From the NCBI GenBank assembly GCA_013335095.1, contig JAAXWF010000001.1, positions 22,797 through 86,796 of the forward strand: 64,000 nucleotides of DNA. Reading direction: 5' to 3'. Below the pieces are notes generated by a model that did not search any database, was not told the DNA's origin, and saw nothing but the letters and a program-made list of their open reading frames with translations. Position 1 is the stretch's first letter. The number at the start of each line of letters is the position of its first letter. The translations under genes were made by a program, and so were the position numbers. Origin of the DNA: a candidate division WWE3 bacterium. Lineage in GTDB: Bacteria; Patescibacteriota; 4484-211; GCA-002791395. Positions 9,518-26,786 of the stretch are shown here, in pieces.

Positions 9518-11182
9518 ATGCGAAAAAAGAATTTACACGTTTCAAGTGACCTAATCATCTTGATTGGAGGTTTCTCAGCAAGCCTTATTGGTGTATTTCT
9601 TGTCGTCTCAGCTTTATTTCCTACCAGCAATAATTCAAATATATTGACCACTAAACTAACACAGACACAAGCGGCAAACAGTTTTACCGATACATTTGAT
9701 GGGAAACCGACATCACCACAACCATTTACCCAAATAGGACAAAGCACCTGGGATATAGCCATACAATCACGGAATCCAGACACGTGGGATACGTTAGTTC
9801 CATTCCAGATGATGCATGGACCTAACTGTGAACCACCACTTATGACTGGCGCGACAGCTCCATATGATCATCATGAATTAATGGTTCATGACTGGGATGG
9901 GAATTATGATAGTGCGGTATTTAAATGTGCCGACCATATCATGACCGGAATTTATGGAATTGGGCGATCTATTAATGATGGATATGCAATGATTGCATTA
10001 ACTCCTAATCAAATGGTTGATTTTACCAACGGACCCGCAACAATACGGTGGGATATGACGACGTTTAGAACAACTCAACGTGATTGGGTTGATGTGTGGA
10101 TCACGCCCTATGACGATAACCTCCAGTTACCATTTGATACAGGTGATGTAGATTTACAAGGAATGCCAATGAATACAGTGCACTTAACAATGACCGCACC
10201 GAATGATAATTCAAAAACAGGTTTCAAACCGACCATAATTATTAATGGACAAGATACCGGTGAATTTCAACAGTTTACCGGTGACTATGATTCATTTTTG
10301 GCCTATGAAGATTATTTACCATCAAAAGCAGGAGATCCAAAACGTCGTGATACGTTTGAAATTACCATAAGCAAAACTCATCTTAAAATGTGTATGCCTC
10401 AAGATACCACTGATAATGCTCCATCTGAGACACTGTGTTGGGTCGATAAGAATATCAAGTCATTACCATTCACAAAAGGGGTGGTTCAATTCGCCCATCA
10501 CTCGTATACACCAAATAAAGACTGCGATTTTTACACGCCCTTACCATGCGGTCCGGACACGTGGCATTGGGATAATATATCAATTTCACCTTCGGTACCA
10601 TTTACCATGATTAAAGCCGATCAAAGAGCGGTACGAGGCGAGACACAGGTTGTCACATTTACTCAATCGGCTCCGGCGAACGCTAAATTGCGCTTTAGTG
10701 CAATTGGATCAGTTCAACTCAGTTTTAATAACGGTTCTTTTCAGTCTGTTACAAACCAATCATCAACCTTATACCACTCAGATCATTTTGCTTCATATTT
10801 TGTAAATATCCCACAAGGGACATCAACAGTTCGGTTTAAATTATCCGGCTCAGAGGTTATGGCAAAAGATTTCGCGATTTGGTCACAAGCAGCGCCAACA
10901 GGGACAACTCCGACACCAATCATAACAACGGCTCCATCACCCACCACACAACCAACACGCACTCCAACCCCAACGATTACGGGAACGACTGTTCTAGGAG
11001 ATATTAACCGGGACCGTATCGTTAATGTATTAGATCTGGGAATACTTGTTGGACTGTATGGGCGTCAAACATCTAGTGATGTAGCAAATGTGAACTTGCA
11101 GCGATCTGATTTAAATGGAAATGGATTAATAGACATTTACGATATTGGAATCCTCTCGGCAAACTACGGTAAAACATACTAG
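9518..11182 (+). CDS. Secreted protein with Pro/Thr linker and C-terminal type-I dockerin module
   Basis: N-terminal signal anchor; PT-rich linker; duplicated Ca-binding segments DINRDRIVNVLD / DLNGNGLIDIYD. Confidence 0.6.
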   Translation: MRKKNLHVSSDLIILIGGFSASLIGVFLVVSALFPTSNNSNILTTKLTQTQAANSFTDTFDGKPTSPQPFTQIGQSTWDIAIQSRNPDTWDTLVPFQMMHGPNCEPPLMTGATAPYDHHELMVHDWDGNYDSAVFKCADHIMTGIYGIGRSINDGYAMIALTPNQMVDFTNGPATIRWDMTTFRTTQRDWVDVWITPYDDNLQLPFDTGDVDLQGMPMNTVHLTMTAPNDNSKTGFKPTIIINGQDTGEFQQFTGDYDSFLAYEDYLPSKAGDPKRRDTFEITISKTHLKMCMPQDTTDNAPSETLCWVDKNIKSLPFTKGVVQFAHHSYTPNKDCDFYTPLPCGPDTWHWDNISISPSVPFTMIKADQRAVRGETQVVTFTQSAPANAKLRFSAIGSVQLSFNNGSFQSVTNQSSTLYHSDHFASYFVNIPQGTSTVRFKLSGSEVMAKDFAIWSQAAPTGTTPTPIITTAPSPTTQPTRTPTPTITGTTVLGDINRDRIVNVLDLGILVGLYGRQTSSDVANVNLQRSDLNGNGLIDIYDIGILSANYGKTY

Positions 11183-12169: not shown

Positions 12170-12212
12170 AAAAGGCGCGAGGATGTTACTCCCCGCGCGT
12201 GTATTAACCCAC
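12170..12212 (-). terminator. Terminator hairpin (gcgcgagg...ccccgcgc); minus-strand fold has a G-U pair, plus-strand has a C-A mismatch
   Basis: Same motif repeated at 13049-13083. Confidence 0.55.
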
Positions 12213-12229
12213 CGACACCAGCCAGACCC

Positions 12230-12895
12230 CTAGATCAGCTCGGTATCTTTGACCATCGAGAGGGCTGCCTGCGCCATGTTACCTAATCGAACCCGATCGA
12301 TATCGACGACAGGATAAAAACACCGATGGCTAATGTATTGGGCAAGAGGTTCGTCCCGATAGAAGGCGCGCCGCTCAACCCACACCCCCGAGATCCTGTC
12401 ATATATCTTGATAATATACGACCGGCTTACGTGTAACATCTCCGTTGGTTCGTAGCAGATCGCTAGACCATCCAACTGAGGGCGAATATAACTCAGGTCC
12501 CCCCCAGCTAAAGCAAACGTTACCATATCCAGAATCAGGTCCTTACCTGCGCGCAGTCGTGGAGACACGGTGACGCCACCAGCCAAGACCTGATCATAGA
12601 CCGCGCGACGCGATTGCCGAATCAGTTGCCGAAGATCGCTCGGCAGCTGATCCCGGTGAATAAGGACCTCAGTTATGGCCAATGCCGTAGCATACCGTTC
12701 ACCTTCGGGGATTTCGCCATTGAAGCTTATTGACCCCAAGCCTAATAGCCCCAATGAAATTGTCACCTTCCCATGAGAGGTGATCAAGCAGACCATCCAT
12801 TGATGGTTGTCCGTTGGTTGAGTTGCCCTACTGACCTCGACCTGACCGAAGATCGTTTCGATCGTGAGCTTATTGTCCGAAGTTACTGCGTCCAC
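12230..12895 (-). CDS. Hypothetical protein (high-GC), tandem paralog A
   Basis: 221 aa; alignable throughout with 13099-13797. Confidence 0.55.
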   Translation of the reverse strand: MDAVTSDNKLTIETIFGQVEVSRATQPTDNHQWMVCLITSHGKVTISLGLLGLGSISFNGEIPEGERYATALAITEVLIHRDQLPSDLRQLIRQSRRAVYDQVLAGGVTVSPRLRAGKDLILDMVTFALAGGDLSYIRPQLDGLAICYEPTEMLHVSRSYIIKIYDRISGVWVERRAFYRDEPLAQYISHRCFYPVVDIDRVRLGNMAQAALSMVKDTELI

Positions 12896-13048
12896 GAAAT
12901 GTCCTCCTCAAGTGATGTCGAACACACGACTCCCTATTCGGTCGATATCCCAGACGTTAAATCTGTCCTCGAATCGAGGCAGATAAGTATCTAATGTTTT
13001 AGGTACTTGGCTGCCTTGACTGACTTTTTCAAAATAATAGAGTAAAAA

Positions 13049-13083
13049 AAGGCGCGAGGATGTGAATCCCCGCGCCCGCGTAC
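13049..13083 (-). terminator. Second copy of the gcgcgagg/ccccgcgc terminator
   Basis: aaaaaaaggcgcgaggatgtgaatccccgcgc. Confidence 0.55.
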
Positions 13084-13098
13084 CCGACTTGAACCGAC

Positions 13099-13797
13099 TT
13101 ACTTCTGGACCTGGTCCAGCCAGTTGTCGTAGACCACGAACCCCGTCTGCCCGATCATCGGATAGAGAAGGCTAGCGCTGGCCACAATCGTCCTGGCCAA
13201 CCCTTCCGGATCGTCCCCCAACGTCGCCGTCGGGAAAAACCGGAGGAGGTCAATCTGAGGATGCCCGTCTGTTAGATGGACAATTGTCTGCTCGGCATAC
13301 ACGCCGAGGTGACCGTCCAGCTCCCGCATCATGTAAGCACGAGTGATCCGGAGAGCCTCGCGATAGATAAAGCTAATCTCCACCCCGCCGTTCACCATCC
13401 GAACCACGCTCCCGCCACGCATGGCAAAGGCTATCATGTCGGCAGCGAGCTCAGTACAGGCGGTGGTCTGCCGCGACCACAGCACCTCTTTGCCGACGAC
13501 ATTATGGTACATTTCGTACCGATGGCGGCGCAGAGCGGCTTCGAGCTCCTGGGGCACCTGCGGGTGCCCGATCAGCAGTTCGATCAGCGAGAGGGTCATG
13601 GCCCTCTTCTCATTGGCAGGCTCGCCGCCGGGCCGGCTCATCAAGCCATCCCGATCGATGCTGAACAGGAACCCGCCAGCATAGTCTGCCCAGATCTCGT
13701 ACCGCCTATCATCCAGGCCGGTCCGGGGCGGGATCTCGATCCGGACGTTGCCGAACGCGGTCTCGATCACGATCTGGTTAGCCTTAGTCGTGGGCAT
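13099..13797 (-). CDS. Hypothetical protein (high-GC), tandem paralog B
   Basis: 232 aa. Confidence 0.55.
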   Translation of the reverse strand: MPTTKANQIVIETAFGNVRIEIPPRTGLDDRRYEIWADYAGGFLFSIDRDGLMSRPGGEPANEKRAMTLSLIELLIGHPQVPQELEAALRRHRYEMYHNVVGKEVLWSRQTTACTELAADMIAFAMRGGSVVRMVNGGVEISFIYREALRITRAYMMRELDGHLGVYAEQTIVHLTDGHPQIDLLRFFPTATLGDDPEGLARTIVASASLLYPMIGQTGFVVYDNWLDQVQK

Positions 13798-13875
13798 AAG
13801 ACCCTCCTAGTAGTAAATACGATGCCAGCACAGCTGGCGCCATAAGTCCTCAACAGGACAACGAATTGCCCTGGC

Positions 13876-13926
13876 CCGTGGGGGCACGAAATCTGTTAAA
13901 CGTTAACCGATTACGCACCCCCACGG
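13876..13926. promoter_or_regulatory. 9-bp inverted repeat (ccgtggggg ... cccccacgg) with 33-nt spacer in the leader region of 13099-13797
   Basis: Seen directly; lies 80-130 nt upstream of the start codon at 13797. Confidence 0.3.
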
Positions 13927-14028
13927 TATCTTGTGTAAAAGTACTTTGGAGCATAAAAGCCCCTTATGTATTAAGTATATCAAATATAGGCTTATAGTAA
14001 AAGCGGCGGTTATGTAAAATATAAAAGC

Positions 14029-14586
14029 TTATTCAGCACGTAGTATTCCGATTTGGGTTTTCCCATCGCTGATTAAATCGACAAGCTCAGATCGACTCGG
14101 TGAAAAATAAAAGACTTCGCCAGGAACGATATTAGGTATGACCTGATGCCTTTTATTCATATACACAAAATTATTCAATTTGGGTTCGATAAGAGTAAAT
14201 CCACATTTTTTATAAAATGGTAATAATTCAGTCTCACAGAATCCTAACGCTGGCTTATTAGTTTTTAATAAGTACTTTTTCACACTCGACATCAACAAAC
14301 GACCCAAGCCTTTTCCCTTTTGGATAGCAATCACAGTCGAAATACATATAATCTTTTCTTTTTTACCTTGAACTACGATTGGTATCCTCCGCAGCTTGCC
14401 GAAAGCTAAAAGTCGATGATTAAACTTTGAATACAACAAAAAAAATAAAGATGTTGAAACCTCGGGATCGTTCTTATTCAACGTGGTCCGGGAGTGAAAT
14501 TCGCGTACACGATACGTATTAATAATTTCAAGCGTTGATCCTGATAAAGCACGACCTTGCATCTTTTGGAGGGTATATTGTGACAT
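14029..14586 (-). CDS. GNAT-family N-acetyltransferase (low-GC)
   Basis: Motif A QKGKGLGRLLM; start uncertain (14586 or 14604). Confidence 0.6.
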   Translation of the reverse strand: MSQYTLQKMQGRALSGSTLEIINTYRVREFHSRTTLNKNDPEVSTSLFFLLYSKFNHRLLAFGKLRRIPIVVQGKKEKIICISTVIAIQKGKGLGRLLMSSVKKYLLKTNKPALGFCETELLPFYKKCGFTLIEPKLNNFVYMNKRHQVIPNIVPGEVFYFSPSRSELVDLISDGKTQIGILRAE

Positions 14587-14607
14587 TAGTACGAATTGTA
14601 ACAAAAA

Positions 14608-14637
14608 AACCGCCGTAGGTTACCCCACGGCGGCATA
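14608..14637 (-). terminator. Hairpin ccgccgtagg/cccacggcgg with U-tract for minus gene 14656-15036
   Basis: Inverted repeat preceded by A7 on plus strand. Confidence 0.55.
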
Positions 14638-14655
14638 AGCACTCTCTCGAAAGAC

Positions 14656-15036
14656 CTACTCGGAGTACCGAGCGACCAGCTCGGCAATCGGATCAGTCCC
14701 CAACTCAGGAGGACATTTGGCCTCGTCGAAGTAAAGCTTGACCTGGCGTAGAATCGCCAGAGTAAGCCGCATCGCGGCCATTGGCATAGGTTGGCCAACG
14801 TCCTTGTTAGTAACCGTGACCATCCGCCCCAACGGGCCATTACCACGCGGATGGACGGTGACCTCAATTGACCCGTCAGACCAAATCCAGAATTCACCTT
14901 CTCGAATCGCGATGGCTAGGTGAGCCAAGGCGATAAAGTCGAACGAGATGCCGTACTGCATAGAGACTTCGCCAAACTCACGGGCCGCTTGAGCGGCATT
15001 TACGCGAGTAGTGAACATCTCCTCCACTCTAGGCAT
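14656..15036 (-). CDS. Hypothetical protein (high-GC)
   Basis: 126 aa; adjacent to the upstream gene (operon). Confidence 0.5.
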   Translation of the reverse strand: MPRVEEMFTTRVNAAQAAREFGEVSMQYGISFDFIALAHLAIAIREGEFWIWSDGSIEVTVHPRGNGPLGRMVTVTNKDVGQPMPMAAMRLTLAILRQVKLYFDEAKCPPELGTDPIAELVARYSE

Positions 15037-15048
15037 GCCATGACCTCC

Positions 15049-15399
15049 TTAGAACTTTGCGAACCACTGTCCGCTAAATCGAATCTCCGGATACCCTTCG
15101 ATCACCAGCCACTGGCGGTGTCCGACAGCAACCAGAAGCGGTTGCCAGCTCTCATCCGGCAAACACGCTGGACTGTGGTACTCGCCATCATGATGATGAC
15201 AAGCAGGCTCATCGACAGGAACCGGAATGACCTCCCTCACCCGAAATGGGCCGCACCCATAGCTCCGAAGGTGGAGCTCTTCCATCAGATTGGTATGGGA
15301 CTCGCGATCCCAAACGACCAGATCACCAGGAGCAAATAGCTCCCGCTCCATTGCCGCAGTCTGCGGGTCAGTAGAAACCGCCACAAGCGTGGGACTCAT
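15049..15399 (-). CDS. Hypothetical Cys/His-rich protein (CHHHDGEYHSPAC)
   Basis: ATG 15399 with aaggaggg RBS. Confidence 0.5.
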   Translation of the reverse strand: MSPTLVAVSTDPQTAAMERELFAPGDLVVWDRESHTNLMEELHLRSYGCGPFRVREVIPVPVDEPACHHHDGEYHSPACLPDESWQPLLVAVGHRQWLVIEGYPEIRFSGQWFAKF

Positions 15400-15630
15400 C
15401 GTACCCTCCTTGCATGGCTCAATTCCTCGCCATCCCGGCGACACAATAGGTGCGTATCATTTTAATAGATTCCCGACAATAAATCAAACACTATAGGTAA
15501 CCGCATCAAGATGGAGTCGCAGCAGCTTTATTTGTTATAAATACATATTTTTGATACAATCGGTCCGTCCTATAAGACAATTCAGGAGTCTGAAAAGCTG
15601 CTGAATTTGGCTGGTTTCAAAGGAGGGTCA

Positions 15631-17838
15631 ATGGCCGCCAAACAGGAAGTCCTAAACCTGGAGCGATTCTCAGGGGCCGCACGGAATCTACTCCGCGATG
15701 CCCTAATAATCGCCTCCGAGGCCGAACACAAGTCCTACGTCAGCTTCGAGCATCTGCTACTGGCGATTCTACAATCGACAGACGCGAATGCATACCGGCT
15801 GCTGGTGGACGCCGGATGTGAACCGGAACGACTCCGGGCAACTATCCGGGCTACGGCTGTTCGAACGCCTCAGGTTAATGGGGTGCTACTCACACACGGT
15901 GAGCTATCGCTGCCGCTTAGTACTGATGCCGCCCGCATTATCGAACGATCTCGTGAAGCTGCATCAAAATTCAGTGCAGCTAAAATCGGATCGGATCATC
16001 TGCTACTGGCGATGTTCGAGGTTGACGAAAGTCGAATCGTCCTCGTCGCAGCCGGCGTTCGCGTTGAAACGATCAAAAGCCTCGTGCTTGAGATCCACCA
16101 AAGCGGACACACCGAAAAAGGTGATGCGGCAATCATCGGCCTGGAAGAGCTTGGCACTCAAGCAGGCCAACTCGAGCCGATCATCAACGTGACTATCGTT
16201 GACGCACTCTGGACACTGTGGACTCATCGTCGCTTGCCGGGGGTCCTATTATTCGCCGAGAGTGGCGCGCCAGCTTGGGATCAAATCCTTGGTCTGGTAC
16301 GCCGACTAAGCTCAACCAAGGAGCCAAAGTTTAGCCTCATCGCGATTTCGCCCGATGCATATCTGAGTAACCCGATCCTGACGATTCAGGCGGCGATTCG
16401 GCGTGCATTGGATGAAAAAGCGATCTTGATCCTTCCCGATATTGGCCAATATGTAGGTCAAGTCGAAGACGGATTCACGACGGCAGTAAGCTTGGTTCGT
16501 GAGGCAGTGCAAAACAGCGGACTCAAGATAGTTGGGATCGCTGAACCGGCCTATCGATCAGTATTATCGAAGGATCGTCTGTTTAGTCGAATGAGGTTTA
16601 CAGACGTCGAAGCCACAACGATAGATCAAACGATCGCCTATATTACAAGGCTGATCGAGACTCTTGTTGATGGCCGAATTACGTTTGCTGAGGATACCCT
16701 CAAGCAAATTGTAGAACTCGCGGATCAGTATCTCCCGCGAGAGTTACCTGGCTGCGCGATTGACCTAACCTACGACGTAGTAGCCGCAGCCGAACTCGTC
16801 TTCGATCAGCAGCAAACTGAGTCGGTCCAGATTGATGGGAATCTCGTACTAGCTGTGCTAGAGAGGCTCACCAACCTTCCACTCGGTAAGCTGATTGGTA
16901 CAGAAAAAGAGAGACTGGCGCAGATGGAGGAAATCATCCATCGTCGCTACGTTAATCAAAAAGATGCAGTGACCGCACTGGCGCGCTCGATAAGGCGCAG
17001 TCGCACTGCATTCCGGGATAAACGACGCCCAATCGGCACGTTTCTATTTCTCGGAACAACCGGAACCGGCAAAACAGAGCTCACCAAAGCTCTGGCCGAA
17101 TTTCTGTTTGGGTCGGACGAAGCCCTGGTGGGCATCGATATGAACGAGTTTGCTGAACCACATACCGTGTCAGCACTACTTGGTTCACCCGTCGGTTATG
17201 AAGGCCACAGTCAGTCTACCCCACTGGATGTGGTTGCCCAACGACCATTTATGGTAGTCCGGTTCGATGAGATCGAGAAGGCACACGACGACGTGCTGCT
17301 TGCTCTGCTCGGACTGATGGAAAACGGATATATTACAACTCGGAGTGGACGAAGGATTAACTTCCGACACACGGTTGTGATTATGACGTCAAACGTAGGG
17401 TCGGAATACCTACGAGGAGAGGATCCAGGATCTGAAAAAGACCAAGCGCTCGCAGCGCTTAAGGATCGTTTTCGCCCGGAGTTCCTCAATAGGGTCGATC
17501 GAACGATCGTCTTTTCACCCTTTAGCAGTGACGATCTGCAGAAGGTTGCCGGGATGTTCCTGGCTTCAACGGTAAAAGAAGCCGCTGAAGAAGGGATCAA
17601 CCTGGTAGTCGCCGCCACGACCTTGCAGCAACTTGTAGCCAACATGGCTCAGGAGTGCAAACAATACGGCGCACGACCACTTCGTCGAGTCATTGATGTA
17701 CTCGAAGAGGTGATTGTCGATGGTATCGTTGCTGGCATATTCAAACCAGGACAAACCGTCGAGGTTCGATTCATGGATAATAAGTTGGAACCGGTCATCG
17801 TATCGGATACATCAGAGGAGGGAGCAGATCATGTCTGA
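15631..17838 (+). CDS. ClpC/ClpB-like AAA+ protein: two Clp_N repeats, degenerate NBD1 (Walker A replaced by ESGAPAWD; Walker B DE replaced by PD), intact NBD2 (GTTGTGKTEL, FDEIEKAH, GARPLRR)
   Basis: aaggaggg RBS; ATG 15631; motif comparison with ClpC/ClpB. Confidence 0.7.
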   Translation: MAAKQEVLNLERFSGAARNLLRDALIIASEAEHKSYVSFEHLLLAILQSTDANAYRLLVDAGCEPERLRATIRATAVRTPQVNGVLLTHGELSLPLSTDAARIIERSREAASKFSAAKIGSDHLLLAMFEVDESRIVLVAAGVRVETIKSLVLEIHQSGHTEKGDAAIIGLEELGTQAGQLEPIINVTIVDALWTLWTHRRLPGVLLFAESGAPAWDQILGLVRRLSSTKEPKFSLIAISPDAYLSNPILTIQAAIRRALDEKAILILPDIGQYVGQVEDGFTTAVSLVREAVQNSGLKIVGIAEPAYRSVLSKDRLFSRMRFTDVEATTIDQTIAYITRLIETLVDGRITFAEDTLKQIVELADQYLPRELPGCAIDLTYDVVAAAELVFDQQQTESVQIDGNLVLAVLERLTNLPLGKLIGTEKERLAQMEEIIHRRYVNQKDAVTALARSIRRSRTAFRDKRRPIGTFLFLGTTGTGKTELTKALAEFLFGSDEALVGIDMNEFAEPHTVSALLGSPVGYEGHSQSTPLDVVAQRPFMVVRFDEIEKAHDDVLLALLGLMENGYITTRSGRRINFRHTVVIMTSNVGSEYLRGEDPGSEKDQALAALKDRFRPEFLNRVDRTIVFSPFSSDDLQKVAGMFLASTVKEAAEEGINLVVAATTLQQLVANMAQECKQYGARPLRRVIDVLEEVIVDGIVAGIFKPGQTVEVRFMDNKLEPVIVSDTSEEGADHV

Positions 17839-18772
17839 CACGCCGGCGCCCGATACAACCGCTGCGGCTGAGAAACCGCAGTTGACAGCCGACGCAATCG
17901 TTACAATGATTGGTGGCTGGATTAGTCAGGGTCATTCAAGCGCCCGGATCTCACAGTACCTGGCAGTACGGGGTATCACCACAGACCTGGTCAGACAAGC
18001 CTGTGCGATGATTCGGCAGGCCGTAACCGAGCAAACCACTCAGGTAGCCGAACTGCGCACCCAGATGCAGGCTGATCTGGATACCGAAGAGTCTACGTAT
18101 ACCAGTGCTCGGGCTGTTCAGCAAGGTCTGCTGGATCAGGCTCAACAGATCATGGCACAAGCGAATGCGGTTCTCGCATTCTACGGTGCCCAGAGCGAAG
18201 CACAGCCTGCGGCGGCTGAGGGTGTGACGCAGGAAACAGCCGTAGAACCGGTGGAGGAAAAGCCCCGCTGGCCAAGTTTCCTCGGCAATATCTTCGAGGC
18301 GTTGTCGGTGGATGATGGACAAGCCGCGGTAGAAGCTGCTTCACTACAGACTGAGGCGAACACGGATATTGCCCAGCCAAGCACTCCATCGTTGGATGAT
18401 CCATATGTACCACTTCAGGTCATATTGGTCATAGCGGATCTATCGATCCAGACGACAAGGCGATGGGATAGTCTGCGGGCTTTATCGGTAGATGAAGGAC
18501 GAACGCCGGACCTAGATCTTGCCGATCTACAGACGACGTTTGAAGTTCTAAAGCCGCAGTTTGAGCGCGGCCGACTTATGGCGCAGCGCCAGGCACAGCA
18601 GAGTCAGTCGGCTATTGGAGTGTATGAAGCGCATTGGTCGCAAGTACGTGCGCAGAATGCACAAAACGTAGCTGAGCTCGACCAGAGGGCGGCGACACTC
18701 ACGAGCTTTAACCAAGCCTGTGACGCAGTGGAGACAATGATCGCCACAATTGAGGCTTCGACCCAGGCCTAA
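17831..18772 (+). CDS. Coiled-coil protein, translationally coupled to the ClpC-like gene (ATGTCTGA overlap)
   Basis: gaggaggg RBS inside the upstream gene; 313 aa, Q/A-rich heptad-like regions. Confidence 0.55.
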   Translation: MSDTPAPDTTAAAEKPQLTADAIVTMIGGWISQGHSSARISQYLAVRGITTDLVRQACAMIRQAVTEQTTQVAELRTQMQADLDTEESTYTSARAVQQGLLDQAQQIMAQANAVLAFYGAQSEAQPAAAEGVTQETAVEPVEEKPRWPSFLGNIFEALSVDDGQAAVEAASLQTEANTDIAQPSTPSLDDPYVPLQVILVIADLSIQTTRRWDSLRALSVDEGRTPDLDLADLQTTFEVLKPQFERGRLMAQRQAQQSQSAIGVYEAHWSQVRAQNAQNVAELDQRAATLTSFNQACDAVETMIATIEASTQA

Positions 18773-18792
18773 TTTTAAACATGGGTTAAAAA

Positions 18793-18835
18793 AATAACCG
18801 CCGGGTGGTACCACAATGGTACCCACCGGCGGTTT
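18793..18835. terminator. Perfect bidirectional terminator (accgccgggtggtacc acaa tggtacccaccggcggt) with A-tract and T-tract
   Basis: 16-bp perfect inverted repeat between convergent operons. Confidence 0.85.
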
Positions 18836-18863
18836 TTCATATCTCTCTAACTCTAATTACTAC

Positions 18864-19946
18864 CTATCTTTTTTCCCCTCCCTTACGAACTACCGCCGAC
18901 CGAGTACCCGAGGTACGCCGCTGGCTAGTCGGTTGTGGGACCGTTGAGGTCAGAGCCCCTCCGGCCAATCCGACATTAGCAACGTCGGCAGCGTTTACAG
19001 GTCCAGCTTCACCACCTGCCATCCACGCCGAGACGGTATTCTGGGCTCTTTCGGTTGCCAGAAGACTTTCAACAGTCCTTCCAAGCTCTTCGGCGGCTGC
19101 AGCCTGGTTCAGAGACTGAACCCCCGCAGACATCGCACTGACTTCAGCCTGAACACGTTCAAACTGTTGCGAAATAGTCAGCCGGGCCTGATCGAACTGA
19201 GCTTCGACCAGGTTGATCATCCGACCAAGCGCTTCGGGGCTGTTAACCCCCTGCTGAACGGCTTCAAGGTGACGTTGGGCAGCCGCATGAGCGGCGCTCA
19301 AACTATTGAGCAGTTCGGCGTCACCCCTGGCGTCTTCCATCTCAGCCAAGAGTCGCCGGACTTCACGTTCGGCGAGCTCTACGGCACTGTTATCGCCGAT
19401 AACCACCGCGAACAGCTGCCCCATGAAGTTCAGCCGTCGCTGGTACAACCGAACTGAAAGCTCCAACAGCTTATCGATGTCGGGCATAATCAGTTGGCGA
19501 GCTGAATCTCCCAAGCCTTCGGAGTCGAACAGTCGATCAAGTTGCTCAACCTGAGCAAAGACTTGATGTAGCTGTTCACGCCGGGCTTCAAATTCCCGCT
19601 TAGTATACGGCGGGTTTTGTGAGTACCGATATTGCTCATAAAGGCCGATCAGACGACCTTCGAGCTCATCCTGTAGCCCTTCAACTTCGCGCAGGATCTC
19701 ATCGGACTCAGTCACGTTCAGGAGGTCATACAGAGACTTCCCGACATACGCGACCAGAGTAATCGATGCCCCTGTTAGAACAGCAGGAATTGCTGCAGCA
19801 GGGGCAATGGCCAGTAGCCCTAAGCCGGATACGAAAGACAATAGTCCTCCGCCAATGGCAATCGTCAGATTCCGTTCGTCTAGAAAAGCTTCCCCAAACT
19901 CACCCAACGAATTCCGTAAGTCGTCGACCAGACGATTCCCGCTCAT
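18864..19946 (-). CDS. Membrane-anchored coiled-coil protein (two N-terminal TM helices; XpaC/TelA-like architecture, family assignment tentative)
   Basis: Hydrophobic segments at aa 27-70, then long helical region; aaaggag RBS. Confidence 0.5.
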   Translation of the reverse strand: MSGNRLVDDLRNSLGEFGEAFLDERNLTIAIGGGLLSFVSGLGLLAIAPAAAIPAVLTGASITLVAYVGKSLYDLLNVTESDEILREVEGLQDELEGRLIGLYEQYRYSQNPPYTKREFEARREQLHQVFAQVEQLDRLFDSEGLGDSARQLIMPDIDKLLELSVRLYQRRLNFMGQLFAVVIGDNSAVELAEREVRRLLAEMEDARGDAELLNSLSAAHAAAQRHLEAVQQGVNSPEALGRMINLVEAQFDQARLTISQQFERVQAEVSAMSAGVQSLNQAAAAEELGRTVESLLATERAQNTVSAWMAGGEAGPVNAADVANVGLAGGALTSTVPQPTSQRRTSGTRSAVVRKGGEKR

Positions 19947-20104
19947 CGAGCGCTCCTTTCCATCGTTACGATCGATCCAACTAGTTCTTGGTTTCTGAAC
20001 TAGGATAAAGCCAAGTATACTGCATGAATTTATCTTAATTAAGAAAATGGGCCGACTCTCAATTAAGAGAGACGGCCCAACATTACGCTATGTTAGCGTG
20101 CGAT

Positions 20105-21961
20105 TTATCGAGCCCCTGGCAGCACCAGTTGGCAGCCAAAGAATCGGTCCTGCCGCCTGATATTTTCATCAGCGGCGTTCATGTGGCTCGGATCCGACGG
20201 AATCACCGGCTTAAACGCGATCCGCTCGACCGGAACGTTCCGGTTTGAAAGCAGATCACGGATAGCCGGAATTCGAACGTCCGTCAGAAACGCCATCAAT
20301 CCTTCGGCGGTATCCCCGGGAGGCCAGGCAGTGCCGACCTCACAGAGCATCAAGACATCGACCGAAGTTGCCTTAAGGGCAGGCTTGATCGAATTATCTA
20401 CGTACGCATCGAAGCGTCCGACCGACTCTTCGACCAACGTGCCTTCGTTGGCGTTGAATTCAAAGAACTCGCGAGGGAACGTTGCCACAACGTCCTCAGG
20501 CTTGATCCCCGTCACGTCGACCGGATTGACCTGAGGTCGCCGATCGAGCGTGAACTCTTTGGCCGTAAACAACGCCCGGGCATCGGTAAGTAGCTCGGGG
20601 TGGCGCTCAGCGGTTCCCAGTACGAACTGGGGATTAACGACCGTCATCGGGTCGAACTGCTGAACTGGTTTACCACCATACCCCCACAGTTCGCTTGTGA
20701 ATGCGATCTGGGTTGCGATCACTCCGCGCTGGCCATTGGCCTGGGTGGTGCGCTGGTCATTCATCAGGTTGACGTTCGACCGGAGCGTCGCTTGCGCGAT
20801 ACCGTTCATGTAGTCGCGCATAGCTGCATCGGGAGACATTCCCGAATCAATCAAGGCCTGGATACCGGTCCAGCCATCGTGGCTCTGATCCCACTCAGAA
20901 ATCATGGTGGCGGCCCCGGCGGGGTCGCTGAGCATGAAGTTCAGGGCATCGAACCAGGCGTCATGAAACGCCTGCACCAGAGCCGGGTTTTCCCCGACAA
21001 TCTGGTTCGAGAAGATCACGCCATCGATAAGGCTTGGAAGGTTTTCGCTTCCGATGACCTTATAGCCGATATCAACATCCTGGCCATTTCCGTCGTAGAT
21101 GAAAACGGTTTTGCCGTCATCGCGAAGGTTAATGACCGGGATCCAGCCGACCATCACGTTGGTCTGGCCCGCCTGATAGGCTTCCAGAGCCTGTTCAGCC
21201 CGGTTGATATCAGGAAGCATCATGCGAACATTCGGATCCGCGGCATTCTCGCGACCAGCGTAATAAAACGTGATCGTTAGAAGCTCACTCACCGAATTCG
21301 CACCTGCCGCAATCGGCTTGCCAATGATCCCCTGGAGCGTTTGATTTGGCTCCCGGGAAACCATGAAATCCGATCCGCGGCTCATGGAGATGATCAACGT
21401 GTTGACGCCGTACGCCCCTTGCAGGGCAAAGGTGTCGACTGTGGTTAGACCACAGTTGAACTCTCCCGTACGCAGGTAATCAGCCTGCTGATTCTCGTCA
21501 AAGTCATTCTGGTCCAGATTGGGGCCAGAAGCCATGGGCACCAGCTCAAGCTCGAAGTTGTGCTTCGCAGCGAATTGCTGAGCCATGAGGATGGTTGGGT
21601 AGTAGCTCGGGTAGTTAGCCACGAAGCATTTCAGTGTACCCAACGAGCCACTTGCTGACGTTGTTCCGGCTTGATTCACTGGGGTTGCCGCTGCAGCAGC
21701 CGTTGGCTGAATTTGCGAGCTCCCTGCCGTTGCGTTATTCGGATTTACCGTCGGCGCGCCCCCCCCGAAGGGAACGACTTGCGTGACGGAAACCGAAGTA
21801 GGTGCGGTTGATGCACTGCTATTGCCCCTGATCAGCAAGGTACGAATCCCCAAACCGATCACGGTGAGCAGCATCAGGACCGCAAGGATAGCAATACCGA
21901 CTCGAGTTGGACTAAGACGCCGACGTCGGCGCAATGAACTACCATCGGTTGGTGAACTCAC
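20105..21961 (-). CDS. Membrane-anchored protein with NMT1/SsuA-like periplasmic substrate-binding domain and C-terminal extension of unknown function
   Basis: GTG start 21961 with AGGAGG RBS; Arg-rich N-terminus plus TM; SBP-like region YPSYYPT...GWIPVINLRDDG. Confidence 0.5.
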   Translation of the reverse strand: MSSPTDGSSLRRRRRLSPTRVGIAILAVLMLLTVIGLGIRTLLIRGNSSASTAPTSVSVTQVVPFGGGAPTVNPNNATAGSSQIQPTAAAAATPVNQAGTTSASGSLGTLKCFVANYPSYYPTILMAQQFAAKHNFELELVPMASGPNLDQNDFDENQQADYLRTGEFNCGLTTVDTFALQGAYGVNTLIISMSRGSDFMVSREPNQTLQGIIGKPIAAGANSVSELLTITFYYAGRENAADPNVRMMLPDINRAEQALEAYQAGQTNVMVGWIPVINLRDDGKTVFIYDGNGQDVDIGYKVIGSENLPSLIDGVIFSNQIVGENPALVQAFHDAWFDALNFMLSDPAGAATMISEWDQSHDGWTGIQALIDSGMSPDAAMRDYMNGIAQATLRSNVNLMNDQRTTQANGQRGVIATQIAFTSELWGYGGKPVQQFDPMTVVNPQFVLGTAERHPELLTDARALFTAKEFTLDRRPQVNPVDVTGIKPEDVVATFPREFFEFNANEGTLVEESVGRFDAYVDNSIKPALKATSVDVLMLCEVGTAWPPGDTAEGLMAFLTDVRIPAIRDLLSNRNVPVERIAFKPVIPSDPSHMNAADENIRRQDRFFGCQLVLPGAR

Positions 21962-22026
21962 AGAGCACCTCCTAAAAGTAAGAGGGACTGCCGCCCATTT
22001 GCGGCAGCCCACTTTCCGATTTAGAA

Positions 22027-22788
22027 CTACTTCTCCGGCGTCAGCCGGGTCGTAGCAGCACCATCAGCAGTAGCAGGTCCAGCCTGGCCGGCTTTCTTCT
22101 TGGCGATGAGTGCCGTAAGCTCCGGACTCATCTCACCCAGAGAGAGCGCGCCACCAGGGGCGAGGCCTGCTTCCATAACCGCGCTCGACATGCGAAGCCG
22201 GGCATCAGCGTCACGCCGCCCGTCATCGGCACGATCCTGAAGCTCTTCGAGCTCCCAAAAGTCGTTGCCCTGACCAATGCCGGCCATCTGTTCCTGCAGT
22301 GAAGCAAGACCAGCTTTAGCCTCATTCGCAGCGATGCGGATCTTGTAGCCGTTGGCTTGAGCTGCCTTAAGACGAGCTGCGTTGATATTACGCAACATAA
22401 TCGCCTTAATGTTGGCTTGAGAGGCAACAGACTCGAGGTCTCTCAGAAGCCCCTCAACGATTGGCTGATGCATCTGGATCTCCTGATCCAGGGCCATTGC
22501 TGTTTCTAGGTCTTCATTTTCGACCGCTTTCTCGCGCCGTGCCTTGAGCTGATCGAGGTACTGAACCTGACGGGCCACATCCTCGGCGAAAGCCTCCTGG
22601 CTTTTGCTCAGCTCAACGCCAGCCCAATAAGCCGAATCCTCGGCTCCCTTGGCCTTGTCGCGTACGCTCTCAAGGAGGTCATCGGTGCTTTCATTGCGAA
22701 GCCACCGCCCAACCTCCCGCCAAAATCGATTCCAAAGCTCGCCGATCACAAATCCCGGACCATTCCGACGAGGAGAACGATTAGACAT
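22027..22788 (-). CDS. PspA/IM30 (Vipp1/LiaH) family protein
   Basis: Coiled-coil with C-terminal PspA-like FWELEELQDRADD segment; ATG 22788 with ggagga RBS. Confidence 0.5.
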   Translation of the reverse strand: MSNRSPRRNGPGFVIGELWNRFWREVGRWLRNESTDDLLESVRDKAKGAEDSAYWAGVELSKSQEAFAEDVARQVQYLDQLKARREKAVENEDLETAMALDQEIQMHQPIVEGLLRDLESVASQANIKAIMLRNINAARLKAAQANGYKIRIAANEAKAGLASLQEQMAGIGQGNDFWELEELQDRADDGRRDADARLRMSSAVMEAGLAPGGALSLGEMSPELTALIAKKKAGQAGPATADGAATTRLTPEK

Positions 22789-23096
22789 ATGAGTATCCTC
22801 CGTAGAACTACTACACCTGATACAGGCTCCGATGCGAATCCACCGAAAGGTCAATCCATTAGCTGGGATTGCTCCCCTTTCCGCTAAACGTGAAATACAC
22901 GCTTACACATTCAGTAAGCGATTTACTTTTACCATATTTTGCTCCTAACGTCAAAACATAACAAAACACTATAAGACGAGATTGCTTATAAATATTCGTT
23001 TTCATCCTTAAATACTTATCAAGCTTTACTAAAAGGCTTATACTTATAAACGCCAATACATCGGCATCGTGGAACGCACGACTATAGGAGGCGTCA

Positions 23097-24521
23097 ATGA
23101 CCCCATCAAGTGGCACGTACCGTGAACATCTTGAGAATCACGGTATCTCGGTACGAACGGATCCAGTCTTGCCGTTTTTTCATTACGATAGAAACGGTAA
23201 GCTCGTCATCAGAGTATCAGGCTACTCCGACCTGGATCTGTTTGAGGTGTATGCAAGGTACGGTGCGGTTCAGCTGAACCTGCCCGATCTAGCAACACAA
23301 AGAGTACATCAGAGATGGGCCATTAATGGAGCGGCAGCAAAGGCTGCCCATTATCCCGAGGCAGTTCAAAGCGCCTATGCGACAAAAGCCAACGACTGGT
23401 ATCCAGTCGTTTCCCGAGTCGTTCGCGCCGGGTGTCATCAAGAGACCTCATCGCCATCGGGGGTCGCAGCAGCTCAGATACTTTGGGAAAGGGGCGAAAT
23501 TAGCCCAGAGCAGATGGTGATTTGTAATGGATACATTACAGCACCATATGCGGGCGCAATTCACGATTTGCGACATGCCGGATTTGCGAATACTATTCCG
23601 GTAATCGACAAAGAAAGCGTGCTGGCGCTCTTCCGACGCGACCATACGTGGCGATTCGGGATCCGGCAACGGGCTCATTTGCCCGCTCAAACAGACACCA
23701 AACCACACAAGGGTGTGTCTCGGTTTGGAATGGATTATGAAGAGCTCAAACGAGTCGCGATGATGATCCAGCGCAACCCCGGATGGGAGTTGGTGTTATA
23801 CCACTTCCACCTAGGTAGCCAGATCATCGATGAGGATAATTTCCTCGGCGGGTTACTGTCTGCAGCGACTAACTACTGTCGACTCAGGCAACAGGTCCCA
23901 ACCCTTCAATATCTTGATATTGGAGGAGGCGCACCAGTCCAATACGGCCTAACCCCACTCACGATTAATCTAGAGCTATTGCTCACTAGATTCTTGGTGA
24001 GCTTAAAGGACCTGTGTACACACTTTGACGTTCCCTGTCCGACGGTCATCACAGAATGGGGACGGTTCACGGTAGCGCCAAGCGAGCTACGGATGATGGA
24101 AATCCGGGCTCAATATGAACCTGGATTTATTCAAGTCCATGACACAATTATGGGCTCATTGGCGGATAATTGGGCAATCAAGCAACCGTTCCCAGTACTT
24201 TCTCTGGCGGGGCTTGACCACCCGACGACACGAGGCAAGATCGTTGGGCTAACCTGCGACGAAGATGATTGTCTATTCACGGAAGACGACAATCATGTGA
24301 CCATCGCTCGTCCAGATCGATTTCGGACTCCCGGGTCCGAGGTTTTGGTAGTTGCCAATACCGGCGCATACCAGTCAAACCTCGGGAATCTGGAGCACTG
24401 CATGCAGTTGCAGGAGGCGGTAATTGCCGCGTATCTCCATCGCGGGCAGTGGGTGTTTGAGACGGTCCGTCCCAGACAAATGGCCAAAGACATGCTCAAG
24501 CTGTTTGGCTGGCCTGTATAG
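23097..24521 (+). CDS. PLP-dependent decarboxylase, fold type III (Orn/DAP/Arg decarboxylase family; arginine-decarboxylase-like)
   Basis: YATKAN PLP-lysine motif, HFHLGSQ, DIGGG motifs; taggagg RBS. Confidence 0.6.
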   Translation: MTPSSGTYREHLENHGISVRTDPVLPFFHYDRNGKLVIRVSGYSDLDLFEVYARYGAVQLNLPDLATQRVHQRWAINGAAAKAAHYPEAVQSAYATKANDWYPVVSRVVRAGCHQETSSPSGVAAAQILWERGEISPEQMVICNGYITAPYAGAIHDLRHAGFANTIPVIDKESVLALFRRDHTWRFGIRQRAHLPAQTDTKPHKGVSRFGMDYEELKRVAMMIQRNPGWELVLYHFHLGSQIIDEDNFLGGLLSAATNYCRLRQQVPTLQYLDIGGGAPVQYGLTPLTINLELLLTRFLVSLKDLCTHFDVPCPTVITEWGRFTVAPSELRMMEIRAQYEPGFIQVHDTIMGSLADNWAIKQPFPVLSLAGLDHPTTRGKIVGLTCDEDDCLFTEDDNHVTIARPDRFRTPGSEVLVVANTGAYQSNLGNLEHCMQLQEAVIAAYLHRGQWVFETVRPRQMAKDMLKLFGWPV

Positions 24522-24542
24522 CCGAGTAGGTCACTGTTAGTC

Positions 24543-24577
24543 GGGGCGAGCGGAAACGTTCGCCCTTTTTTTATCAC
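24543..24577 (+). terminator. Hairpin gggcgagcg gaaa cgttcgccc followed by T8
   Basis: Inverted repeat plus T-tract. Confidence 0.7.
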
Positions 24578-24675
24578 CCCGCAGCACCAAACTATAGGAC
24601 TCCATGGTATATAATTACACTTAAGTTTCCGATAAATAAGACTAGGAGCCAGTCATAGCTGGTACAGGAGGTCGG

Positions 24676-25227
24676 ATGAAGCGCTGCTTCGCGTGCTCGG
24701 GCAAAAGCCCAGTCGATGCGCAGTACTGCATCAACTGCTCGGCACCATATCCGATAGCAAGCACGGGCACCACGAAACACCTTGGAAAACAAGACGACCT
24801 TGCCCGCACCATAGCCGTAACACACATAGCAGCTATGATGGGGTTAATCCAGTTCACCATGATCATCATCGGCGACATGCTGATGTACAACATCATAGGA
24901 CTGGAATACTGGAAGTCTCTTTCGTTGTTCGAGTTTAGCCTGTTGTGGACATGTCGAGGTATGCTCGATACCGGTATCAGCCTATTGGTACTCATCGGGT
25001 TGCTTCGCTTGACAACAAAAATGGTAATAACAGGTTCGCCTCGCCAGATAGCCAAAAAACGAATCATCGTCACGGCTATCTTAGCGCTGGTGATGTCAGT
25101 AGTTGGGCTCATGGTAGCTCCTGAGTTAAACTACAACCTGCAGGACAAAACCACAATATTGGCCATCAGCCTCATAATGGCCGGAGCGGTTGGTACACTG
25201 ATAGGTAGAGCAAGTAAGACTGCATAA
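24676..25227 (+). CDS. Membrane protein with N-terminal zinc ribbon (CxxC...CxxC) and four TM helices
   Basis: caggagg RBS; Cys pairs; hydrophobic segments. Confidence 0.55.
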   Translation: MKRCFACSGKSPVDAQYCINCSAPYPIASTGTTKHLGKQDDLARTIAVTHIAAMMGLIQFTMIIIGDMLMYNIIGLEYWKSLSLFEFSLLWTCRGMLDTGISLLVLIGLLRLTTKMVITGSPRQIAKKRIIVTAILALVMSVVGLMVAPELNYNLQDKTTILAISLIMAGAVGTLIGRASKTA

Positions 25228-25231
25228 ATAG

Positions 25232-25268
25232 CTGCCGGGGCTTAGCACAACTAGTCCCCGGCTTTTTT
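25232..25268 (+). terminator. Hairpin gccgggg...ccccggc followed by T6
   Basis: Inverted repeat plus T-tract. Confidence 0.7.
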
Positions 25269-25346
25269 ATTTCTTAATTTCATAAAAGTTGATACTAGAG
25301 CCTATAATATTAATACGGTGATTTAAGGATCGTAGAGGAGGCAAGT

Positions 25347-26000
25347 ATGCCATTGCAGACCGATTGGAGTAATGTCGGAACGGCGAATCTACGCCGTAAG
25401 GTGGCCAAGCTGATTAAGCGTGCAGAGATTGACGTTGACCAGCGCTATCTCGCCCTCCACGCCATGGGTCTACCCCAGGGACAGATCCCAAACGTGGAAA
25501 AGCTGATTGACGCAGCCACCCGGGAGCAGCTCGAAGCTGCCGCAACGATCTTGTCGTACCTGATTGGTCCAGCCAAAGAAGCGGGCAAAGGTACAACGAT
25601 TGAGCAAGACGCTCGACGATGGTGGGAAGAGGCCCTTGCGGCCAACGCCCACAATGGAATCCCACAGGAATGGGTTAATAGGATCGACCTACTGACTCAG
25701 CTCGAAAATCTGGGTTATGGTGTAGACCAGATCAACCCGGTCGTACGACTGGGCAAAGTTCAGGTGTACCGACTGATCGTCAATCAGTTCAAGCTTGCGG
25801 CAGATCGGTACAACGAGAACCTAGGCACCCTGGTCGAAGTATCTAGGCGGGAGTGGGAAGCATTTTGCAACGCGAAGCAGGAGGATGAGGTCCTGGTAGC
25901 GATGCGCGCATGCTTCACCTGGATACAGGATCGTAGCCAGCCGATGCCGTCTCCTCGGCAGATGCTGCTGTTCTACGGTATGCTCGGCAGCACAATCTAA
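25347..26000 (+). CDS. Hypothetical protein (high-GC)
   Basis: agaggagg RBS; 217 aa. Confidence 0.5.
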   Translation: MPLQTDWSNVGTANLRRKVAKLIKRAEIDVDQRYLALHAMGLPQGQIPNVEKLIDAATREQLEAAATILSYLIGPAKEAGKGTTIEQDARRWWEEALAANAHNGIPQEWVNRIDLLTQLENLGYGVDQINPVVRLGKVQVYRLIVNQFKLAADRYNENLGTLVEVSRREWEAFCNAKQEDEVLVAMRACFTWIQDRSQPMPSPRQMLLFYGMLGSTI

Positions 26001-26017
26001 GGTTTGCTCGAAAATGG

Positions 26018-26052
26018 TGCCGGGGATCCACATGGATCTCCGGTTTTTTTAT
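26018..26052 (+). terminator. Hairpin ccggggatcca...tggatctccgg followed by T7
   Basis: Inverted repeat plus T-tract. Confidence 0.65.
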
Positions 26053-26124
26053 TTACAACCTCCATAAAACTATCTAAAAATGACTCACATTAATGATTAT
26101 TGATATGAATATGATGCCTAAAAA

Positions 26125-26152
26125 AAAGGCAGCGAGTTTCCCCGCTGCCCGA
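26125..26152 (-). terminator. Hairpin ggcagcg...cgctgcc with U8 on minus strand, 3' of 26175-26786
   Basis: Inverted repeat preceded by A8 on plus strand. Confidence 0.6.
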
Positions 26153-26174
26153 TCGTAGCACCTCCTGAAAATTT

Positions 26175-26786
26175 TTAGTCGAACGCCATCAGTTCGACCC
26201 AGTGATTGTCACGAACTGCGGCCCAATCAAGGGTCCCCGCAATTGAGTGACACTCCTGACTCACCCGCCACGGATCTCCCGCGGCAAGCAGGTCAAGATA
26301 AGCCGAGCGGTAATCAGCCGCCCGAGCAACGCTGCCGACTCGTTCGGCCTTGCCGGGATGAGTTCGCTCAGGTCGGACACGAAAGCAGACCAGCTCCCCC
26401 TTCTTAAGGGTTGGCTGAACCCAGTCGTGCCCATTCCGATAGAACTCTATCGGCGTAAAACCTTCAGAAAATCGGACGTTCCACACGTCCGATCCATGAA
26501 AGTAGTACGACCGTCCAACGGCACTGTTGCCGTCGATACCCAGCCCCTTGATAAATCCGAAGCCTTTGCTGGCATCATAGAATGTGACTTCGCCGAGGAA
26601 AAGCACGTGATGCTTTTCTGGCTGATCGTCAGCAAACCAGATTGGCCCAAAGCTTCGAGGATTTTTGGCCGCCTCCACCACATCCGCCCGACAGATCGGG
26701 CAGAATCCATTATGGCGAACAACATTCGCCTCCTGCGTATCGTCCTCGATGGTGTGGGCGCACGGGAAAAAAGTCACCGTAGCCAT
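26175..26786 (-). CDS. Fusion protein: N-terminal Cys/His zinc-finger-like motif, central cold-shock domain (KGFGFI), C-terminal domain of unknown function
   Basis: CSD signature GEVTFYDASKGFGFIKG...YYFHGSDV; aaggaggg RBS. Confidence 0.6.
   Translation of the reverse strand: MATVTFFPCAHTIEDDTQEANVVRHNGFCPICRADVVEAAKNPRSFGPIWFADDQPEKHHVLFLGEVTFYDASKGFGFIKGLGIDGNSAVGRSYYFHGSDVWNVRFSEGFTPIEFYRNGHDWVQPTLKKGELVCFRVRPERTHPGKAERVGSVARAADYRSAYLDLLAAGDPWRVSQECHSIAGTLDWAAVRDNHWVELMAFD

Follow-up and report, generated by a model that had tools for sequence, protein, structure and literature searches.

The window analysed here is a stretch of 64,000 nucleotides from a candidate division WWE3 bacterium, a member of the candidate phyla radiation (CPR). 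It contains a gene for a Clp-like ATPase (15631-17838, forward strand) and, directly 3' of it, the gene of a helical protein, here called the partner (17831-18772, forward strand). A reverse-strand operon of three genes for membrane-associated and coiled-coil proteins (TMcc360, big635 and cc275) runs towards this pair, and a decarboxylase gene diverges from the far end of that operon. As the best-supported description, these five to six genes form an envelope module that is rare and horizontally mobile.

The Clp-like ATPase and its partner

The Clp-like gene encodes 735 residues from an ATG, with a TTG eight codons upstream, and its product is labelled 'ATP-dependent Clp protease ATP-binding subunit' by NCBI. 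A sigma-70-like promoter match (TTGTTA-17-TACAAT with TG) lies 5' of the gene at 15532-15560 on the forward strand; it is a match to the consensus only, and such matches are no more numerous in the region than in shuffled sequence. All features of the Clp-like protein given below are encoded on the forward strand.

The Pfam search recovered Clp_N in two stretches (E 5.9e-12) within the N-domain (residues 1-160, 15631-16110), AAA_2 at residues 466-624 (E 7.4e-46) and ClpB_D2-small at residues 632-712 (E 6.4e-9), in agreement with the two Clp_N repeats and the canonical second ATPase domain that had been read in the first-pass annotation. The first ATPase domain (D1, residues 161-400, 16111-16830) was placed from the alignment A1, a phmmer alignment to ClpB and the motif coordinates. 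It has no Pfam AAA match and only a sub-threshold AAA_lid_9. Opposite the Walker A motif GEPGVGKT stands AESGAPAW (residues 209-216, 16255-16278), in which Ala replaces the Lys and Trp the Thr, and opposite the Walker B motif ILFVDELH stands ILILPDIG (residues 265-272, 16423-16446), in which Pro replaces the Asp and Asp the Glu. Six residues opposite KYRGEFE are gone from pore loop 1 (16363-16389), the sensor-1 position lies at 16534-16548, and the Arg-finger position (16585-16599) is degenerate, with S-RMRF in place of ERRFQ. The small-domain motif LPGCAIDL (residues 372-379, 16744-16767) is retained and aligns with the canonical LPDKAIDL. The alignment to ClpC and ClpB thus bears out the earlier claim of a dead D1 in ClpC-like surroundings, with no intact motif at either Walker position.

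The second ATPase domain has an active-looking large domain (D2, residues 401-625, 16831-17505) with Walker A GTTGTGKT (residues 475-482, 17053-17076), pore loop GYEG (17194-17205), Walker B VVRFDEIEKAH (residues 542-552, 17254-17286), the sensor-1 motif TSN (17383-17394) and the Arg-finger stretch FRPEFLNRVD (17470-17499). The D2-small domain and the stop codon follow (17506-17838), and within them lies the sensor-2 motif GARPLRR (residues 680-686, 17668-17688). Homologues and canonical Clp proteins have GYVG where the window protein has GYEG, and an acidic residue beside the pore Tyr is unusual. ATP binding and hydrolysis are predicted for the D2 ring alone.

Two features of known Clp classes are missing. 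The M-domain is absent, as residues of about 388-404 join ClpB residue 534 directly in the phmmer alignment and a gap stands at this place in alignment A1; therefore, no coupling to Hsp70 would be expected. The LGF/IGF loop that docks ClpP is likewise absent, since the LGF-bearing insertion of proteins P0041 and P0007 is not found in the aligned window protein, which would therefore not feed a protease. The NCBIfam scores lie far below the equivalog cut-offs (347 against 1232 for ClpB, 294 against 993 for ClpA and 226 against 885 for ClpV (TssH)), and the cut-offs of ClpK and ClpG are also missed. Because of these scores and the two missing features, the protein is, judged from its sequence, Hsp100-like and outside every named Clp class, and the earlier impression of a non-standard Clp arrangement proved right.

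Close homologues are very few. The word-indexed search of 5.8 billion clustered proteins found only two, P0002 and P0003; either one shares 41% identity with the window protein (34-35% in the N-domain). The matches that came next, at about 316 bits, were ClpC-like proteins of the ordinary kind. The scan of JGI metagenomes with the D1 region revealed no further members of the family. In all three full-length proteins the D1 motifs are lost: P0002 and P0003 carry GEEGSGRW and GEAGSARW at the P-loop and VVPNLD and VVPNLH at Walker B, the deletion in pore loop 1 is common to all three, and none of them departs from Trp in place of the Walker A Thr or from Pro in place of the Walker B Asp. With canonical ClpC proteins, which share 59% among themselves, the D1 large domain has 18-21% identity, compared with 30-54% within the pseudo-D1 family; the corresponding values for D2 are about 49% to canonical ClpC and 56-77% within the family. 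Conservation amounts to about 49-57% for D2 and 18-33% for D1.

These comparisons bear on one explanation of the locus, in which D1 is in decay within a non-functional or degenerating paralogue of Clp, and the open reading frame (ORF) downstream is fortuitous. The strong divergence of D1 would agree with it, and among the three proteins the window D1, with Ala in place of the Walker A Lys, has degenerated furthest. However, each of the three full-length homologues has an uninterrupted reading frame over its whole length, the Trp, the Pro and the pore-loop deletion are shared at 41% identity, all D2 motifs are intact, and the downstream gene is conserved (E 3e-34). Because of this conservation, decay is effectively refuted. 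As the close homologues carry the same dead D1, the pattern is that of a conserved pseudo-ATPase and not of a pseudogene, and D1 is best interpreted as a retained, non-catalytic scaffold ring.

The nearest relatives with an intact D1 are ClpC-like proteins of 740-748 residues from Bipolaricaulota, Thermotogota and similar groups (P0004-P0018 and P0070; locus L044, 6001-8247), which also have neither the M-domain nor the ClpP-docking loop. The one genomic context examined for them consists of unrelated housekeeping genes.

The partner gene encodes 313 residues (NCBI hypothetical protein HGA91_00245). Its start overlaps the stop codon of the Clp-like gene (ATGTCTGA), and its ribosome-binding site GAGGAGG (17816-17822, forward strand) lies 8 nt 5' of the partner ATG, where the Clp-like gene reaches its 3' end. 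The overlap, the ribosome-binding site, the length and the richness in Ala (16%) and Gln (11.5%) were all located as first described. The single-sequence AlphaFold model (predicted local distance difference test, pLDDT, 67) shows a long antiparallel helical hairpin: after a three-helix N-terminal domain comes a helix of 73 residues (51-123), then a disordered linker of 80 residues (125-204) and a helix of 83 residues (230-312) that pairs back. Used as the sole query in a sequence search, the partner matched only itself. Homologues that are 26-34% identical (E 3e-34 for the one in locus L001) are encoded immediately 3' of the Clp-like gene in loci L001 and L002 and adjoin it in the same convergent layout in L039 and L040/41. 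The partner is thus a real, conserved and syntenic gene, and wherever a locus extends to that side it adjoins the Clp-like gene. The translational coupling proposed earlier is compatible with the overlap in the window, but the overlap is unique to it: in the homologous loci the genes are still adjacent, with a spacer of 18 to 52 nt. The terms 'translationally coupled' and 'obligate partner' were therefore too strong.

The convergent membrane operon and its relatives

A G + C-rich hairpin (18797-18841) was recognised by reading the sequence between the partner gene and the TMcc360 operon; its near-perfect arms (CCGCCGGGTGGTACC...GGTACCCACCGGCGG) measure about 15 bp, and an A-run and a T-run flank it. 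It probably terminates transcription of the two operons from both sides. The simple terminator scan missed it. The first gene beyond it, TMcc360 (18864-19946, reverse strand), encodes 360 residues with a hydrophobic stretch at residues 27-69, which has room for two transmembrane (TM) helices, followed by a long helical or coiled-coil region. It matched three proteins in a phmmer search against 1.84 billion representative proteins and none in the JGI metagenome scan. Its homologues are 32-34% identical (alignment A9) and occupy the same position in loci L001, L039 and L040/41.

The gene big635 (20105-22012, reverse strand) encodes 635 residues, with a TM anchor at residues 33-63, a low-complexity linker, a solute-binding domain of the NMT1/SsuA type and a C-terminal OmpA-like domain; among the NCBIfam models, SsuA and urea-binding solute-binding proteins (SBPs) are matched weakly. 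The gene cc275 (22027-22788, reverse strand, with the ORF extending to 22854) encodes 253 residues from M23, arranged as an amphipathic N-terminal helix, a helical hairpin and a short C-terminal helix. The N-terminal helix is rich in Trp, Phe and Arg and reaches a hydrophobic moment of 0.90 at residues 15-32, compared with a mean of 0.25 for the protein, and the helices are predicted at residues 11-29, 52-90 and 94-145 (model pLDDT 52). The C-terminus (22027-22200) holds, after a flexible stretch, a conserved short helix with the pattern GE.S.EL.AL and a local pLDDT of about 80, reminiscent of a MIM-like docking motif. The profile search with cc275 matched four proteins.

Divergent from cc275 lies a gene for a SpeA-like, pyridoxal phosphate-dependent (arginine) decarboxylase (23097-24521, forward strand; Pfam Orn_Arg_deC_N, E 1.2e-16). 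Its match to the NCBIfam arginine decarboxylase (E 8e-38) is below the cut-off. A terminator-like hairpin with a T-run (24543-24566, forward strand) lies 3' of it.

The module recurs in other loci. The order cc275, big635 and TMcc360, converging on the partner and the Clp-like gene, is conserved in loci L001, L039 and L040/41. In L001 all six genes, from the Clp-like gene through the decarboxylase gene, follow one another as they do in the window, and their pairwise identities are 30-41%; L002 covers the adjacency of the Clp-like and partner genes and L042 and L043 cover the cc275 side. Altogether, the synteny extends to at least four lineages. The decarboxylase gene, which often accompanies the other genes, is divergent from cc275 in the window and in L001, and in L042 a partial gene without an assigned identity takes that place. 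A Band_7/SPFH gene lies directly 5' of the cc275 homologue in L040 (683-1492); Band-7 proteins are reported partners of PspA (PMC11237479).

Outside this group, homologues of big635 that are 25-28% identical were found at 36 Chloroflexota loci (L003-L038). They match Pfam NMT1 above the cut-off and OmpA below it (E 1e-4), and they usually have a SpeA-like decarboxylase gene before them. At eight Anaerolineales loci an SBP+VWA protein and a bona fide PspA_IM30 come after the big635 homologue. The pseudo-D1 Clp is absent from all 36 loci. The conserved Chloroflexota neighbourhood (e.g., L004, 8564-14911, and L018, 7369-13192) comprises the decarboxylase, a family of about 280 residues with two TM helices plus a coiled coil, the TM+NMT1+OmpA protein and the SBP+VWA protein. 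The 280-residue family (alignment A13) has no Pfam match and 19 copies in the fetched loci; TMcc360 was considered as a member of it, and the homology was unsupported (E 0.29).

Base composition and transfer of the module

The module lies in a G + C-rich stretch of the window, at about 12.2-26.6 kb. The G + C content at third codon positions (GC3) is 0.52-0.65 in the module genes and 0.33-0.36 in the flanking genes, and because of this difference in G + C content and GC3 the composition indicates that the module was acquired horizontally, as part of a G + C-rich foreign island. An assembly chimera is a less likely origin of the stretch. The island (12200-26600) also contains several unannotated ORFs, which together with the module genes have a G + C content of 0.50-0.60 and a GC3 of 0.52-0.78, the highest value belonging to the ORF at 13099-13797 (0.78); genes outside it have a G + C content of about 0.40. 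A GNAT-like ORF at 14029-14604 lies inside the island, yet its G + C content is host-like (0.36). The window yielded neither a tRNA nor an Rfam element, and the Pfam-scanned ORFs in or beside the island include no integrase or transposase.

Elsewhere in the window, four genes (9518-11182, 26956-29262, 32473-34503 and 48996-50897) encode several alginate-lyase-family proteins with dockerin, CBM6, CBM35 or PA14 modules and one further protein that has a sub-threshold dockerin as its sole Pfam match. The set looks like secreted or cell-surface polysaccharide lyases.

A foreign base composition and a patchy, rare distribution would also suit an anti-phage or conflict system with a ClpB-like ATPase, such as Dodola (DolB) or the candidate PDC-M37, and the D2 region does match PADLOC models (PDC-M37B, E 6e-22; DolB, E 7e-14). 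However, these matches are confined to the generic AAA_2 domain. No other protein of the module has a meaningful match to PADLOC or phage families, no DolA or PDC-M37A model matches a neighbour, and no nuclease, toxin or sensor domain is present. Moreover, the pair of big635 and decarboxylase genes is widespread in Chloroflexota chromosomes, and its neighbours there, genes for PspA, VWA and solute-binding proteins, suggest that it serves the envelope. We consider a role in defence to be very unlikely.

Proposed function and comparison with known systems

At every locus that covers both sides, the pair of Clp-like and partner genes is convergent to the membrane/envelope operon, and because this synteny is kept at 30-40% protein identity a functional linkage between the two can be argued. 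On the basis of this context, our tentative reading, whose probability we place a little short of even, is that the Clp-like protein is a ClpP-independent, D2-driven remodeller of the membrane coiled-coil proteins of the module, similar in its logic to Vps4. It may reshape membrane-bound assemblies rather than rescue aggregated proteins. The pseudo-D1 ring would hold the hexamer together, the Clp_N domain and/or the partner would recruit it to the membrane-bound coiled-coil proteins, and threading driven by D2 would extract or disassemble them. The C-terminal helix of cc275 could serve as a handle for the Clp_N domain or the partner. The role of the module as a whole would lie in envelope maintenance or stress.

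The first-pass annotation had suggested that the two genes may encode a dedicated disaggregase/adaptor pair. Spelled out, this would be a disaggregase or unfoldase of the cytosol to which the partner, as its dedicated adaptor, brings aggregated or specific soluble substrates by way of Clp_N, and the membrane operon would be co-transferred cargo. The Clp_N repeats with an intact D2, the ClpC-like nature of the closest intact relatives, and a partner that is always adjacent and resembles a generic coiled-coil hairpin without a membrane feature all agree with such a pair. However, the proposal leaves the convergent three-gene operon out of account, although at least four lineages preserve its synteny with the pair while the proteins have diverged to 30-40% identity. 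An M-domain for coupling to Hsp70 and a ClpP loop are both missing from the ATPase, and its extreme rarity and its place in a foreign island are unlike a general proteostasis factor. We therefore regard the cytosolic pair as rather unlikely.

Enzymes with one dead ring are known in other AAA+ clades. In the type II AAA+ proteins Pex1/Pex6 (D1) and NSF (D2), one catalytically dead ring gives structure or supports oligomerisation as a scaffold, and the work is done by the other ring. These proteins are eukaryotic and belong to clades other than that of the window protein, and the literature searched describes no case of a bacterial Hsp100 with a dead ring. With the class-I Hsp100 proteins ClpC, ClpB and ClpA the window protein shares the double Clp_N, the D1-D2 tandem, the catalytic AAA_2 D2 and the D2-small domain; it differs from them in a D1 from which Walker A and Walker B as well as pore loop 1 and the Arg fingers are gone, and in the absence of the M-domain and the ClpP loop.

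A parallel in gene content is found in the operons described by Ravi et al. (mSystems 2024; PMC11237479), in which genes for PspA and membrane-anchored, divergent Snf7 proteins co-occur with a protein of two AAA+ modules whose N-terminal module is inactive. These operons also hold a SIG+PBPB+OmpA protein (solute- and peptidoglycan-binding), and the authors proposed Vps4-like, ATP-dependent membrane remodelling for them; AEY64320.1 (Clostridium) and the OGG56892.1 operon (Handelsmanbacteria) are examples (PMC11237479). By the published description, the likeness to the window extends to the two AAA+ modules with a dead N-terminal one, the TM-anchored solute-binding and OmpA-like protein, the protein with TM helices and a coiled coil, the further coiled-coil proteins, and a coiled-coil gene directly 3' of the ATPase gene.

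The comparison with Vps4 and CdvC concerns only the proposed logic, in which a hexameric, soluble AAA+ protein recognises its targets through an N-terminal domain and is encoded next to membrane-binding neighbours with a helical hairpin. In such a system the short C-terminal helix of cc275 could serve as a docking motif. The window protein differs from Vps4 and CdvC in having no MIT domain, in not being a single-ring classical AAA protein and in showing no detectable homology to them. The bacterial ESCRT-III relatives PspA and Vipp1 polymerise on membranes. According to a 2025 review, a dedicated Vps4-like recycling ATPase is apparently absent from bacteria (PMC7619361); comparative genomics has named two-domain AAA+ proteins whose N-terminal module is dead as candidates (PMC11237479).

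A relationship of the neighbours to these polymers was looked for by profile and structure comparison. The hhalign targets were an alignment of Chloroflexota PspA and a broader alignment that adds PspA of E. coli and Pseudarthrobacter. The cc275 alignments A3 and A8 matched PspA with marginal values (E 0.03-0.06) and in a constant register (cc275 residues of about 58-144 on PspA residues of about 32-115), and the block-shuffle control gave an empirical P of about 0.04. In the Foldseek search with the cc275 model, 17 of the 20 top PDB matches come from the ESCRT-III superfamily (CdvB2, CdvB and Vipp1), but with E-values of at least 0.24. HMMER gave no match of cc275 to PF04012 or PF03357. The cc275 protein is possibly PspA/ESCRT-III-like, and the predicted architectures of cc275 and TMcc360 are consistent with what a PspA and a TM+Snf7 protein would look like. 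The partner showed no similarity to PspA by hhalign or Foldseek; its model matched generic coiled-coil hairpins, and chains of the ESCRT-III superfamily were absent from the top 50. The tblastn search with Chloroflexota PspA against plasmids found nothing.

Several observations weigh against a membrane remodeller of this kind. The cc275, TMcc360 and partner proteins have no relevant match in Pfam (with E up to 10), in NCBIfam or among PDB sequences; a second alignment of the cc275 family (A11) gives no hhalign signal to PspA; and the E-values of the Foldseek matches given above are non-significant for a model that is itself of low confidence (pLDDT 52). The similarity of TMcc360 to PspA, an early and weak ranking signal, disappeared when a profile of four sequences was used and was judged to be coiled-coil noise. 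No pseudo-D1 Clp occurs in the Chloroflexota clusters that hold a true PspA. The operons of Ravi et al. also differ from the module. Their ATPase is a classical AAA protein, defined by PF00004 and without mention of Clp (PMC11237479), whereas that of the window belongs to the Clp/Hsp100 clade (Clp_N, AAA_2 and D2-small), with AAA_2 as the best match of D2 and only 20.5 bits for PF00004 (cut-off 21.2). They also include ATP-binding cassette transporter genes, which are absent from the window module. Finally, the pore loop of D2 reads GYEG in place of GYVG.

In another explanation, the partner is not an adaptor but regulates the ATPase or serves as its substrate, e.g., as an inhibitor until envelope stress occurs, and the module signals rather than remodels. 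In the PspA-PspF system a coiled-coil protein binds and inhibits an AAA+ protein in envelope stress (PMC7619361), the order of the ATPase and coiled-coil genes matches the published dyad of 'inactive-AAA + AAA -> PspA' (PMC11237479), and the long disordered linker predicted in the partner would suit such a role. However, PspF belongs to the NtrC-type enhancer-binding proteins and has a DNA-binding domain, and the window ATPase has neither feature; it carries no DNA-binding or output domain, and the partner has no similarity to PspA. A regulatory role of the partner is thus unlikely in our estimation.

The reading as a D2-driven remodeller can be carried one step further. The recruitment of an Hsp100 with a scaffold-only D1 would then be an event separate from those of Vps4 and the classical-AAA ATPases, and its task would be to disassemble, at the membrane, highly divergent ESCRT-III/PspA-like polymers formed by cc275 and perhaps TMcc360, with the partner as a Vta1-like adaptor. 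This more specific version is speculative, and we regard it as rather unlikely.

The module follows the logic of the PspA/Snf7 operons (PMC11237479) around a different motor, Hsp100/Clp. If the specific version is true, it would represent a third, convergent route to the ATP-driven recycling of ESCRT-III-like polymers and supply a bacterial analogue of Vps4. The module would also extend the range of Hsp100 proteins to one in which just one ring works and neither a protease nor Hsp70 is linked to it, and its five to six genes would make a compact system for reconstituting an ATP-driven remodeller of membrane polymers. If the link to ESCRT-III fails, what is left is an unusual and seldom-found form of Clp whose pseudo-ATPase ring is conserved, and it would appeal chiefly to specialists in AAA+ proteins. 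The locus is also an example of a reduced CPR genome that has gained an envelope module horizontally.

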